From NCBI GenBank assembly GCA_037131855.1, contig JBAXQG010000001.1:1-44731 (forward strand): a stretch of 44,731 nucleotides of DNA. Reading direction: 5' to 3'. Below are positions 11,277 to 12,605 of this stretch, one piece after another (the stretch's first letter is position 1; each line of letters opens with the position of its first letter). The position numbers and the translations under genes are program-made. The notes beneath the pieces are model-generated. The model was not told where the DNA came from, did no database searches, and was given only the letters and a program-made list of their open reading frames with translations. The stretch comes from a bacterium (GTDB taxonomy: Bacteria > Caldisericota > JANLFM01).

Positions 11277-12605
11277 GTGTTGACGATTCCCAATTTGCTG
11301 ACCATTTTGCGTCTGGCAGCCGTAGCGCCGCTGGTTATCTTCATTCTTGCGCGAAATTCATTGGCAGCTTTCCTGGTCATTCTTTTCGCCACCCTTTCTG
11401 ATTATTTGGACGGCTATTTAGCGCGACGGTTCAATCAGGAGACCAGGCTTGGAAAGATCCTCGATCCCACTGCCGACAAGCTGTTGGGCAGCGCTGCTTT
11501 TATTTCCTTGTGCATTGCCCAGTATCTGCCTTGGAGCATCTTCGCCCTTTTCGCCGCGCGGGACTTGATCCTCCTTATCACCATGTTTATCCTAACCGCC
11601 CAACGCAAACAGATCCTCACCGAAACCAAAGCCGGCAAGTTTTCCACCGGTCTTTTTATGTTAAGCCTCGCTCTTGTGGTCATTGAAGTCCCTTATGCTA
11701 TCCTCCTCTTTTATCTTTGTTACGCGATCTACCTATACACCGGAGCGACTTATGTCATTCGAATATTCCAGACTCCGGAAGGCAAGGAATTAAAAGAGGA
11801 AGCCAAGCGTCGCTTCCGCAAGCGCGCAGAAGGAGAGGAAGTGTTTCTTTCGGGAGACGATCATGCCTGTCACAGCACGGGGACTGATTTCAACTCTGTT
11901 GGCGTGCTGCCTAAAGCGATCCTTGCCGTTGACGCCCAGATCTACCTGAGGATCCCTATCCGCACCCACGAGATCAAGCCTCCTGATAGTTTACCGGAAC
12001 AAGTGTCAAGGTATGCTGGAAGGCTGCTTCGATCGAGCGACACATTGGTCCTTTCGGAAAAGATGGTTGCCGCTACCCAAAACCGATTGATCCTCGCTGA
12101 CTCCATCCACCCTACGCGTTTGGCTGTTTGGCTAGCCGGGAAGGTGACCAAAACTCCTTATGGAATCGGCCTGGGCAGCCCCTTGACGATGCAGTTAGCC
12201 TTGCGTGAATGCGGGACTTGGCGCATTCTCCTGGCTGCCGCCTTCGGGGCAGTTGGGAAACTGCTGGGGATCAAGGGTCTTTTCTACCGGGTAGCCGGGC
12301 GGCAAGCGGCATGGATTGACGGGGACGCCCCCTATGGGATGTTGCGCGGTCACGCCGTCTTGGGACCAAAAGAACCTGCTCGAGTCTGTCAGGAATTGGA
12401 CCATCTCCTCGGATGCCGAGTTGCTATCATGGACGTCAATGACATCGGCGGGTGCGAGATTTGCGGCGCCTCGCGCGGCGTTGACAAACGAACCTTATTG
12501 GCTTTGATGAAAGATAACCCTCTAGGCCAGGATGTCGAGCAGACTCCAATCGGGATCCTCCGTCCACTCGATGGGGGTCTGGCAACTCTCTTCCATTCTC
12601 GTTGA
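11277..12605 (+). CDS. fusion protein: PgsA-type CDP-alcohol phosphatidyltransferase (N-terminal, membrane) plus a CofE-like F420-0:gamma-glutamyl ligase family domain (C-terminal)
   Basis: N-terminal part: [11 protein letters not shown]..., the CDP-OH transferase motif [27 protein letters not shown], and multiple TM helices. A charged linker follows ([19 protein letters not shown]). C-terminal part is colinear with CofE landmarks: [54 protein letters not shown]. GTG 11277 lies 1 nt after the GNAT stop; the longest ORF starts at TTG 11238. Confidence 0.85.
   Translation: [442 protein letters not shown]

Follow-up and report, generated by a model that had tools for sequence, protein, structure and literature searches.

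A PgsA-type phosphatidyltransferase fused to a CofE-fold domain in Coprothermobacterota: a clade-restricted fusion involving a family not tied to F420

In a 44,731-nucleotide stretch of bacterial DNA (hereafter the window), a single gene joins a PgsA-type CDP-alcohol phosphatidyltransferase to a soluble domain with the fold of CofE. The encoded protein of 442 aa has three parts: a six-helix PgsA-type domain, a linker made up of a charged helix and then a disordered tether, and a CofE-fold domain of about 220 aa. The fusion is real and both of its halves are under purifying selection, and the C-terminal domain is not CofE sensu stricto but a member of a family that is not tied to F420. On balance we favour the explanation that two translationally coupled neighbours fused recently within one clade of uncultured Coprothermobacterota, that the fusion serves mainly as a membrane tether, and that both halves are functional. 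The features on which this is based are collected in Table 1.

Table 1. The fusion gene, its parts and its neighbours (positions in the window; aa numbers refer to the fused protein)
Feature	Position	Strand	Basis or remark
plsY, acyl-phosphate:glycerol-3-phosphate acyltransferase	8335..8892	+	PF02660, E 6.9e-40; three genes upstream of the fusion
Conserved 111-aa protein without family match	9862..10197	+	in the phylum always between sua5 and (GNAT)/pgsA
CelD/BcsL-type GNAT (PF13480 Acetyltransf_6)	10154..11275	+	ends 1 nt before the fusion ORF
Whole fused ORF pgsA::cofE-like	11277..12605	+	442 aa plus stop; identical protein P0001
PgsA-type CDP-alcohol phosphatidyltransferase domain, aa 1-170, six membrane helices	11277..11786	+	PF01066, TIGR00560, 7DRJ, AF2 helices
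Catalytic motif D-x2-DG-x2-AR-x8-G-x3-D-x3-D, 27 aa, aa 42-68	11400..11480	+	read from sequence
Charged cytoplasmic helix after TM6, 23 aa, aa 166-188	11772..11840	+	AF2 helix, aa 167-187
Disordered tether, aa 189-214, length and sequence variable among fused orthologues	11841..11918	+	pLDDT <50, dN/dS
CofE-fold domain, aa about 215-442, CofE-like family	11919..12602	+	fold, hhalign, alignment A1
18-aa motif, family consensus SEKxVAITQGR, aligned to CofE CSTVISKAEGR	12036..12089	+	alignments
11-aa motif, invariant Asp aligned to CofE metal ligand D109	12306..12338	+	alignments
14-aa motif, invariant D-x-N-D at the CofE D150/T151 position, exact register ambiguous	12411..12452	+	two alignments
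19-aa motif, invariant Gln aligned to CofE metal ligand E208	12513..12569 (landmark string 12537-12569)	+	hhalign
rimP, first of the rimP-nusA-ylxR-infB cluster, directly downstream	12676..13122	+	next gene downstream

The reading frame runs without interruption from a GTG at 11277 to a stop codon at 12603-12605, and the ORF translation together with the Pfam and fold matches confirms the preliminary description of this DNA, which had placed two domains in one uninterrupted ORF. A TTG at 11238 was considered as an alternative start and rejected, as it would overlap the upstream gene by 38 nt, and the orthologues begin with MLTIPNLL, which fits a start at 11277. Fused orthologues with 82-88% identity are represented by three proteins (P0002, P0003 and P0004) and two loci (L006 and L007).

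For the N-terminal domain, the Pfam model CDP-OH_P_transf (PF01066) gives a significant match to aa 2-150 (E 2.7e-33, 115.9 bits against a cutoff of 22), and the CDP-alcohol motif is complete, as had been described. The best match among the NCBIfam models is pgsA (TIGR00560), whose score of 100.4 bits nevertheless lies narrowly under the equivalog cutoff of 109.1, and the subfamilies ClsA (87 bits), PIP synthase and PssA rank below it. Searches with phmmer recovered S. aureus PgsA (7DRJ) with E 5e-13, against 5e-7 for PIP synthase, and Foldseek comparison of the domain gave TM scores of 0.76-0.77 (rmsd 2.2-2.3 A) with 7DRJ/7DRK, against 0.53-0.66 with PIPS and 0.36-0.44 with PSS. The AlphaFold model (AF2) has the six-transmembrane-helix fold, with pLDDT >90 across aa 1-170. 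That the domain is PgsA-type, as first proposed, is thus borne out by PF01066, by the best NCBIfam subfamily and by S. aureus PgsA as the best structural match, and we infer that its acceptor is glycerol-3-phosphate, which corresponds to the specificity of a PGP synthase.

The linker that follows is about 50 aa long in total, with the charged helix succeeded by a tether of about 25 aa, and the AF2 model shows pLDDT <50 at aa 188-210. An earlier estimate had put the charged linker at about 40 aa. The helix is the counterpart of the C-terminal tail of unfused PgsA, and homologous tails are present in the PgsA proteins of L008, L089 and L091. In alignment, the linker of P0003 is 13 aa shorter than that of the window and the linker of P0004 is 24 aa longer, both in frame. 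An internal start that would release a free C-terminal domain (AAGGAG-N5-GTG, 11830-11843) looks plausible in the window, but was rejected as the main mode of expression because it is not conserved, the start codon position being GTG in the window, GTT in L006 and TTG in L007. The AF2 model of the full-length protein reaches a pTM of 0.69, compared with 0.86 for the C-terminal domain alone, and so lends no support to a fixed packing of the two domains or to a docked interface.

The C-terminal domain passes the gathering cutoff of the Pfam model F420_ligase (PF01996) narrowly, with 29.4 bits against 25, and the match covers aa 228-314 and only model positions 2-83 of 218. Single-sequence and profile HMM searches of the domain against PDB sequences found CofE at only about 11 bits (E about 1), and therefore the comparison of folds and hhalign were needed to establish the relationship with CofE. 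The AF2 model of the domain has a pLDDT of 87, and its only significant Foldseek matches in the PDB are the structures of A. fulgidus CofE (2PHN, 2G9I and 7ULD; E 6e-8 to 2e-6, probability 1.0), with TM scores of 0.52-0.56 and 16-20% identity. The hhalign comparison with CofE gave a probability of 88% and E 2.8e-6 over 196 columns; an FbiB N-terminal sequence served only as a probe to retrieve A. fulgidus CofE from the PDB alignment and as the second entry of a single hhalign profile. These 196 columns and the shared fold uphold the earlier view that the domain is colinear with CofE, and all four landmark strings on which that view was based are present and fall on the best-conserved motifs of the family described below.

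The metal ligands of CofE are reportedly D109, D150, T151 and E208 (Nocek et al. 2007), and we confirmed the residue types at these positions in the PDB sequence. The register of the D-x-N-D motif differs between alignments: in one, D185 falls on D150, and in hhalign N187/D188 fall on D150/T151. At the E208 position the sequence alignments show an invariant Gln in the family, followed three positions on by a Glu that is nearly invariant. In CofE a domain-swapped beta-hairpin together with F92, G153-C155 and R234 holds the F420 ring (PMC10861534). In the hhalign comparison the family shows a gap, about 20 residues long, precisely where CofE has this hairpin, and a different helical insert (12 aa...RILLAA...FYRVAG) takes the place of the region aligned to F92. 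The Coprothermobacterota domains also carry a 12-aa loop of their own after the IDG motif, where the rest of the family has IDGPxxYTIPPYN, and this lineage-specific loop could reflect a changed substrate.

The preliminary description had called the C-terminal half CofE-like (F420 gamma-glutamyl ligase family); in the strict sense it is not a CofE/FbiB-type enzyme, and it belongs instead to a separate, large and mostly stand-alone family. We defined this family by an alignment (A1) with 32 invariant columns, and it is characterized by the invariant motifs RxPIRTH, SEK..TQ.R, YGIGLG, E.G..RI, FY..AG, IDG, D.ND.G and DNPLGQ..EQTP..R. The window domain has all 32 invariant residues and is 45-55% identical to stand-alone members (E 1e-46 to 1e-58). 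Against the cofE model TIGR01916, which has a cutoff of 180.65, it scores 14.4 bits, and other members score 25-29 bits: 27.0 for the stand-alone protein P0009, and 25.2 and 29.0 for two AsnB fusions (P0150 and P0158). The family comprises about 1,550 clusters at 50% identity from at least 580 species, mostly stand-alone proteins of about 250 aa. Its members are numerous in gut Clostridia, Saccharibacteria, Brevinematales and Caldisericia and occur in Spirochaetota. Their annotation varies between 'coenzyme F420-0:L-glutamate ligase' and 'hypothetical', as for the proteins of Bittarella massiliensis (P0009) and Microbacterium (P0078).

Fusions are frequent in this family. Among the best 150 representatives, 66 carry extensions, including 33 AsnB, 6 Amidase_3, 5 TPR and 2 GNAT domains, with one case each of PlsY, HD, adenylate kinase, AhpC and M20. 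The PlsY::CofE-like fusion (P0128; loci L086 and L087) comes from an unrelated lineage and was found on two short contigs from two samples of one study. Its PlsY half passes the TIGR00023 cutoff and is 31% identical to the window PlsY, and its C-terminal domain is 46% identical to that of the window. No conserved neighbour of the stand-alone family recurred in more than about 10 loci (83 loci, all-versus-all clustering; Pfam census of 144 upstream neighbours), and no lipid theme was seen among those 144 neighbours. The recurrent neighbours, uvrC-SBP-[gene]-murB-PHP-rapZ-yvcK and V-ATPase subunits, were not taken as functional evidence, each being derived from a single clade, and the contexts of one AsnB fusion and one Amidase_3 fusion had no partner in common. 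Given the 45-55% identity, the retention of every invariant residue and the promiscuous fusions of the family, we regard the window domain as an ordinary member of the stand-alone family.

Within Coprothermobacterota the whole housekeeping block tk-DUF1385-prfA-plsY-sua5-x-pgsA-cofE-like-rimP-nusA-infB is syntenic across the phylum, where x is the 111-aa protein. Because the entire block is conserved, the adjacency of pgsA and the cofE-like gene is not specific evidence of a functional link, and the argument that a position after plsY favours a head-group role is weak for the same reason. The neighbouring GNAT, previously described as FemAB-like and offered as further support, is of the CelD/BcsL type; it occurs only in the nearer Coprothermobacterota lineages and is absent from L008 and L091, which already have the pgsA/cofE-like pair, and so it too carries little weight. 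NCBIfam and PDB sequence searches with it gave no match, and only 12 homologues were found, with the JGI name CelD/BcsL.

In every Coprothermobacterota locus examined (PgsA identities of 54-100%), pgsA and the cofE-like gene are adjacent and overlapping or, eventually, fused, and the unfused cofE-like orthologues of the phylum are 64-71% identical to the window C-terminal domain. The two genes are separate in L008 and L091, with an ATGA overlap and a run of A8 just before it, and in L089/L090, where they overlap by 14 nt and a strong Shine-Dalgarno sequence is present. One unfused PgsA (P0288) was found on 17 contigs; close unfused relatives carry the JGI pipeline name 'cardiolipin synthase'. 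The fused state occurs in the window, L006 and L007, in the same syntenic block as the unfused loci, and the existence of sister lineages with separate, overlapping genes in this block therefore indicates that the fusion is recent and restricted to one clade. Among the fused orthologues, at a dS of about 0.65, dN/dS is lowest in the two domains and much higher between them [PgsA 0.05-0.085, CofE-like 0.085-0.13, linker 0.50-0.64]. Several lineages have kept the fusion under purifying selection over this distance, which suggests that tethering does no harm at the least and might be of use.

The mechanism we propose for the favoured reading begins with the loss of the pgsA stop codon within the short gene overlap, which is the likely cause of the fusion. 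The PgsA half would convert CDP-diacylglycerol and glycerol-3-phosphate to phosphatidylglycerol phosphate and CMP at the cytoplasmic face of the membrane, and the charged helix and the tether would hold the second domain on the cytoplasmic side of the membrane, where the PgsA active site also lies. The fusion is probably dimeric, with a cytoplasmic topology of the C-terminal domain. The CofE-fold half most likely acts as its stand-alone relatives do, for which we propose that a carboxylate is first activated in a nucleotide- and metal-dependent reaction and then joined through an amide bond to an amine or amino acid, the substrate being one other than F420. This ligase chemistry is suggested, by analogy, by the fold and by the partly conserved metal ligands, E208 being an invariant Gln in the family. 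The fusion would then chiefly tether a CofE-like enzyme to the membrane. Three observations weigh against this reading: the retention of the fusion under purifying selection, the independent PlsY::CofE-like fusion and the lineage-specific loop.

A closer coupling, as the preliminary description had proposed, in which a lipid-linked product that arises at or beside the PgsA domain is modified by the CofE-like domain, seems to us rather unlikely. Glutamate or another amino acid might, for example, be ligated to a carboxyl-bearing head group or a lipid-linked envelope precursor, which would mirror the step from CofD to CofE, that is, transfer of a phospho-alcohol from an NDP-activated donor followed by amide ligation. 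The constant pairing of the two genes in the phylum and their eventual fusion are in keeping with such a coupling, as is the lineage-specific loop beside the IDG metal motif; the C-terminal domain would also share the cytoplasmic side of the membrane with the PgsA active site, and its tether would be long enough for it to reach that site. The independent PlsY::CofE-like fusion, seen in another lineage and in two samples, can hardly be put down to mere coincidence and gives a hint of chemistry that is close to the membrane or lipid-linked, and the natural substrate of CofE has a carboxylate beside a phosphodiester (PMC10861534), which is chemically near some head groups. However, the pairing lies inside a wholly syntenic block, and in none of the 77 loci with a family member outside the phylum does pgsA lie within about 6 kb, while plsY is nearby in only one (L063, 3.4 kb away), with no lipid theme upstream. 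The family is fused to many unrelated partners, AsnB being the commonest, the N-terminal domain is nearest to PgsA, whose product PGP has no carboxylate, and no docked arrangement is predicted by AF2.

The broader proposition that the CofE-like family consists of membrane- or envelope-directed amide ligases, with a lipid-linked substrate in Coprothermobacterota, we hold to be quite unlikely. If it were true, the PgsA (or PlsY) half would supply or adjoin a phospho-alcohol head group that the tethered domain would aminoacylate or glutamylate, so that the logic of CofD and CofE would be replayed in lipid metabolism and would yield an undescribed class of phospholipids.

It is very unlikely that the C-terminal domain is a nucleotide- or metabolite-sensing regulatory module that tunes PgsA, and the partner enzymes in other fusions. 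Two features would suit such a role: a metal site that is remodelled in comparison with CofE (E208 to an invariant Gln, D150/T151 to D-x-N-D), and a diversity of enzyme partners (AsnB, amidase, PlsY, PgsA, HD and adenylate kinase) that resembles the behaviour of regulatory domains. Against this, invariant polar residues are unusually dense in the family, with D, E, N, Q, T and R among the 32 invariant columns, as is typical of active sites; its members are for the most part single-domain proteins that stand alone, and we know of no regulatory role for the CofE fold.

That the domain is the organism's genuine CofE, acting in the polyglutamylation of F420 (or 3PG-F420), is scarcely credible. The PF01996 match and the fold are what would be expected of CofE, but the TIGR01916 score is far below its cutoff, the gap falls at the F420-contacting hairpin, no F420 biosynthesis gene was found in the 44.7-kb window, and the many family members in gut Clostridia, Saccharibacteria, Brevinematales and Caldisericia belong to groups that, to our knowledge, are not known to make F420 (compare the review PMC8498797). 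The doubt expressed earlier about a role in F420 biosynthesis was thus well founded, on the model score, the hairpin gap, the taxonomic spread and the content of the window alike. An assembly or sequencing artefact is just as hard to credit, for although the unfused relatives overlap by only 4-14 nt, one of them with A8 at the junction, and a single indel in the linker could merge two such frames, there are at least four non-identical fused sequences from independent projects (JGI, NCBI MAGs and ENA) whose differing linkers stay in frame through indels of 13 and 24 codons, the window linker contains no homopolymer run, and neither the stop codon nor the Shine-Dalgarno/ATG arrangement that marks the unfused state is present.

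The fusion itself is a small, clade-restricted event, and its interest lies in the large uncharacterised CofE-fold family to which it points, one whose members routinely bear the wrong name 'F420-0:gamma-glutamyl ligase' in organisms that are not known F420 producers. The independent fusions to PlsY and PgsA, which are consecutive membrane enzymes of phospholipid synthesis, are leads to the substrate, as are the frequent fusions to AsnB-type amidotransferases and those to a MurNAc-L-Ala amidase and a PepV-like dipeptidase, and they point to a carboxylate related to the envelope or to peptides. Action of the ligase on a lipid would mean a new head-group modification; failing that, a widespread annotation error is still corrected, and the family bears on the origin of CofE, which has been called unclear (PMC8498797). 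As a corollary of the broader proposition above, this widespread family without ties to F420 could be the evolutionary source of CofE. Our searches of the literature on the PgsA/CofE-like architecture, on PF01996 outside F420 and on Coprothermobacter lipids found nothing relevant, in agreement with the earlier statement that this architecture is without a described example.

Among the known systems, CofE and FbiB-N (2PHN, 2G9I, 7ULD) resemble the C-terminal domain in overall fold, in the SxK/SEK...GR motif, in the Asp at D109 and in the acidic cluster at D150/T151, and by analogy they probably share with it NTP-dependent formation of an acyl phosphate and amide ligation. They differ in that the window domain is only 16-20% identical (TM about 0.55), lacks the F420-contacting hairpin, has a different helical insert and carries Gln in place of E208. 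S. aureus PgsA (7DRJ/7DRK; TIGR00560) shares the complete motif and the six helices, and the window pgsA stands in a housekeeping block with plsY; the fusion adds a C-terminal extension of 270 aa, and we know of no characterised PgsA that has one. Relative to the stand-alone CofE-like family, the window domain is tethered to a polytopic membrane enzyme and has its own loop after IDG. The PlsY::CofE-like protein is similar in joining a polytopic, glycerol-3-phosphate-using phospholipid enzyme to a C-terminal CofE-like domain on a linker, although its membrane partner is another one and its lineage is unrelated. The IPCT-DIPPS of A. fulgidus (4MND), which is among the Foldseek matches of the N-terminal domain, likewise combines, in one fusion, a CDP-alcohol phosphotransferase with the soluble enzyme for the adjacent pathway step, and in MprF a soluble head-group-modifying domain is coupled to a membrane domain. 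In both IPCT-DIPPS and MprF the two halves share one known pathway, and the soluble domain of the window protein has a different fold from theirs.

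The pgsA::cofE-like gene runs without interruption for 442 aa from a GTG at 11277 to the stop at 12603-12605, so that the preliminary description of a single in-frame two-domain ORF is correct as written; the complete CDP-alcohol motif and the four CofE landmark strings that it named were also all located in the sequence. An alternative TTG start at 11238 would give a longer ORF overlapping the upstream gene by 38 nt, but the orthologues begin MLTIPNLL, which makes 11277 the likely start. Fused proteins with 82-88% identity to that of the window are found in JGI, NCBI and ENA assemblies, and their linkers vary in sequence and length (13 aa shorter in the orthologue P0003, 24 aa longer in P0004), with the frame kept in all. 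We compared the window with the fused loci L006 and L007 at the codon level (dS ~0.65) and obtained dN/dS values of 0.05-0.085 for the PgsA domain, 0.085-0.13 for the CofE-like domain and 0.50-0.64 for the linker. Both halves have been under strong purifying selection since the fusion, and the linker is nearly free. Given this selection and the in-frame proteins with differing linkers from the three sources, the fusion is real. GenBank gives the architecture no name beyond 'CDP-alcohol phosphatidyltransferase family protein', and the searchable literature does not describe it, in line with the earlier statement that no characterised example was known. Both halves have known folds (PgsA and CofE).

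The gene lies in a syntenic block found across Coprothermobacterota (tk-DUF1385-prfA-plsY-sua5-111 aa-...-rimP-nusA-ylxR-infB), in which more distant lineages of the phylum carry pgsA and the cofE-like gene unfused, as precursors of the fusion. In L008 and L091 (PgsA 54-56% identical) the two genes are separate, with an ATGA overlap after an A8 run and no GNAT; in L089/L090 (71% identical) a GNAT gene precedes the two genes, which are again unfused, overlap by 14 nt and come with a strong Shine-Dalgarno sequence, and this unfused PgsA is present on 17 contigs. In the window's clade the GNAT is present and the two genes are fused. The three states point to an order of adjacency, GNAT insertion and, last, fusion. 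A Shine-Dalgarno-like AAGGAG and an in-frame GTG are kept inside the window's gene; L006 has GTT at this codon and L007 has TTG, which rules out separate translation of the C-domain as a conserved feature. The GNAT, of CelD/BcsL type (PF13480), entered the block after the 111-aa gene and before pgsA, ahead of the fusion and in part of the phylum only; it has 12 matches in 5.8 billion proteins and none in NCBIfam or among PDB sequences. Every Coprothermobacterota locus examined has the 111-aa protein at the same place, after sua5 and ahead of pgsA (59-90% identity); it has no Pfam or NCBIfam match.

All assigned genes of the window (1-44731) are on the + strand, in one long co-directional housekeeping block (rho, thyX, tk, prfA, plsY, nusA-infB, rbfA, truB, ribF, pnp, RNase J, ftsK, ssb, dnaB, prs, pth, mfd, mazG). 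The Thy1 domain of the 377-aa ThyX covers aa 4-193 only, and its C-terminal extension of ~180 aa has no family match; a 309-aa ORF has no Pfam match.

Positions of features in the window and in other loci
Feature	Position	Strand	Remark
ThyX ORF	4448-5581		
111-aa protein	9862-10197		
GNAT	10154-11275		
CDP-alcohol motif	11400-11480	+	complete, read from sequence
Internal AAGGAG and GTG	11830-11843		
CofE landmark strings	12036-12089, 12306-12338, 12411-12452, 12537-12569	+	located in sequence
309-aa ORF	27360-28289		
Asparaginase_2 paralogues	31702-32574, 32626-33525		in tandem; isoaspartyl peptidase / L-asparaginase, Ntn-hydrolase
PlsY::CofE-like fusion P0128	L086:1527-2873, L087:353-1699		seen in two ENA samples
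AsnB fusions	L088:8001-10826, L092:7001-9688		
CofE-like fusion P0175	L093:6001-7611		Spirochaetia
CofE-like gene in V-type ATPase operon	L016, L035, L063, L075 (~5000-8500 each)		Brevinematales/Spirochaetota

The N-domain matches PF01066 (CDP-OH_P_transf) over aa 2-150 (E 2.7e-33), as had been expected. Its best curated NCBIfam model is pgsA TIGR00560, with 100.4 bits just below the cutoff of 109.1, followed by ClsA-type cardiolipin synthase (87.5 bits) and then by PIP synthases and PssA. Among solved structures, S. aureus PgsA is the closest in sequence (7DRJ, E 5e-13). In the full-length AlphaFold model this domain has a pLDDT above 90 and resembles 7DRJ/7DRK (TM 0.76-0.77, rmsd 2.2-2.3 Å) more closely than PIP synthases (TM 0.53-0.66) or PS synthase (TM 0.36-0.44). 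The PgsA equivalog cutoff is narrowly missed, yet PgsA is the best match in every comparison. The domain has six membrane helices, and in solved CDP-alcohol phosphotransferases the termini and the active site are on the cytoplasmic side; by analogy, both termini and the PgsA active site would face the cytoplasm.

For the C-domain, the proposed F420_ligase assignment (PF01996) holds in part: the match at aa 228-314 exceeds the gathering score (29.4 versus 25 bits) but does not extend beyond the first third of the model. PDB sequence searches barely detect CofE (~11 bits, E ~1), and the score with the curated CofE equivalog TIGR01916, 14.4 bits, is far below its cutoff (180.65). AlphaFold, given 32 aligned relatives, yields a confident model (pLDDT 87, pTM 0.86), and the suggested fold search returns A. 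fulgidus CofE (2PHN, 2G9I, 7ULD) as the sole significant PDB matches (E 6e-8 to 2e-6, probability 1.0, TM 0.52-0.56, 16-20% identity), the next being at E ~0.9. A profile comparison of the family with CofE spans 196 columns (probability 88%, E 2.8e-6), and a stricter one aligns 136. The CofE metal ligands, reportedly D109, D150, T151 and E208 (Nocek et al. 2007), fit the AF2256 CofE sequence, taken from a PDB alignment, in residue type and numbering. In the alignments, D109 pairs with the invariant Asp of the family's IDG motif, D150/T151 are overlain by an invariant D-x-N-D motif whose register differs between the two alignments, and E208 aligns with a Gln that is invariant in the family, followed three residues on by a Glu that is nearly so. 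The numbering agrees with F92 and G153-C155 as named in PMC10861534. In the profile alignment, a gap of ~20 residues falls exactly at the domain-swapped beta-hairpin of CofE, which makes critical F420 contacts (PMC10861534). The fold matches, aligned ligands and hairpin gap thus argue for a CofE fold with a recognisable but remodelled metal site and without the F420-specific apparatus. The fusion departs from CofE in score, F420-binding hairpin and, judged from these alignments, one metal ligand. The substrate of the C-domain is very probably not F420; the TIGR01916 score and the missing hairpin bear out the earlier doubt about F420 biosynthesis.

In protein searches, four fused clusters (P0001-P0004, the named ones Coprothermobacterota MAGs) are followed by hundreds of stand-alone proteins of ~250 aa with 45-55% identity to the C-domain, from Bacillota, Thermoanaerobacterales, Actinomycetota and Chloroflexota. 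With each GTDB species represented by one genome, relatives occur in at least 580 species, the matches listed being mostly from Clostridia, with Brevinematales/Spirochaetota, Saccharibacteria, Armatimonadota, WOR-3 and Calditrichales. When 1.84 billion representatives were searched exhaustively with a profile, 1,553 clusters matched at E <=1e-3, of which 402 reached E <=1e-30. The 32 invariant columns of the family alignment are mostly polar, which points to an enzyme active site. The family has no NCBIfam model, and full-text literature searches returned no paper on it. Many members are labelled 'coenzyme F420-0:L-glutamate ligase', very probably wrongly in view of the taxa that carry them. 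The wider significance lies in this widely mis-annotated family and its fusion repertoire; it may also shed light on how CofE originated, a point on which the field has no clear view (PMC8498797).

Extensions of at least 90 aa are present in 66 of the 150 best representatives. The partner is an AsnB-type glutamine amidotransferase (passing TIGR01536) in 33, Amidase_3 in 6, TPR in 5 and GNAT in 2, and PlsY, HD_4, adenylate kinase, AhpC and a PepV-like M20 dipeptidase occur once each. Four of these partner types (AsnB, amidase, dipeptidase and GNAT) would fit amide or peptide chemistry, perhaps related to the envelope; we regard this as a lead and not a result. The AsnB fusion, the commonest multidomain form (~870-940 aa; P0146, P0150, P0158, P0207 and ~29 further representatives), has a full glutamine-hydrolysing asparagine synthase N-terminal to the CofE-like domain, and its two contexts in the table have no partner in common. 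P0175, P0121, P0136, P0142, P0203 and P0205 each carry a different partner (MurNAc-L-Ala amidase, PepV-like M20 dipeptidase, HD_4 in Uhrbacteria, adenylate kinase, peroxiredoxin, and TPR in Caldisericia); a second Amidase_3 and an M55 D-aminopeptidase lie near the MurNAc-L-Ala amidase fusion. In the V-type ATPase operons, the stand-alone gene follows the F and E subunit genes and precedes two large ORFs, presumed from size and position to be the A and B subunits. The order uvrC-SBP-cofE-like-murB-PHP-rapZ-yvcK occurs in nine loci, eight of named Clostridia/Bacillota MAGs (L009, L010, L017, L022, L026, L031, L041, L065) and one of Calditrichales (L059). YvcK is in the CofD Pfam family, so paralogues of the consecutive F420 enzymes CofD and CofE lie ~3 kb apart; we know of no F420 production in these organisms.

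We lean towards tethering without demonstrated channelling. The protein would be a membrane-anchored bifunctional enzyme whose N-domain, from its family assignment, would convert CDP-diacylglycerol and glycerol-3-phosphate to PGP, and whose CofE-fold domain would most likely keep the activity of its stand-alone orthologues. On the model of CofE (PMC8498797, PMC10861534), an NTP- and metal-dependent step may turn a carboxylate into an acyl phosphate, which an amine then attacks. The two parent families both form dimers, and the CofE active site is at the dimer interface (PMC10861534), so a dimeric fusion seems geometrically plausible.

Genuine lipid-linked chemistry by the C-domain, in keeping with the head-group modification suggested in the preliminary description, appears unlikely. 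The pgsA and cofE-like genes are always adjacent in Coprothermobacterota and finally fused, but their adjacency is little informative because conservation extends over the whole block; in 77 loci outside the phylum, pgsA is within ~6 kb in none and plsY in one. The C-domain would lie on the PgsA active-site side of the membrane on a flexible tether of ~25 residues, but the full-length model, with a pTM of 0.69 and a disordered linker, predicts no docked arrangement. The independent fusion P0128, from an unrelated, probably Bacillota-like lineage, tethers a second phospholipid-synthesis membrane enzyme to a CofE-like domain; its PlsY half scores 147 bits (TIGR00023 cutoff 137), and identity to the counterparts in the window is only 31% for PlsY and 46% for the C-domain. 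The CofE-like family is, however, a promiscuous fusion partner, and no gene is common to more than ~10 of 83 neighbourhoods of its members, the recurrent ones coming from single clades. Regulatory, F420 and artefact readings of the fusion have small probabilities.

The C-domain shares the fold with CofE and has an Asp aligned with D109; it differs in the Gln aligned with E208 and in having no hairpin. The architecture has a precedent in IPCT-DIPPS (4MND), a CDP-alcohol phosphotransferase fused to a soluble enzyme, and 4MND is among the fold matches of the N-domain.
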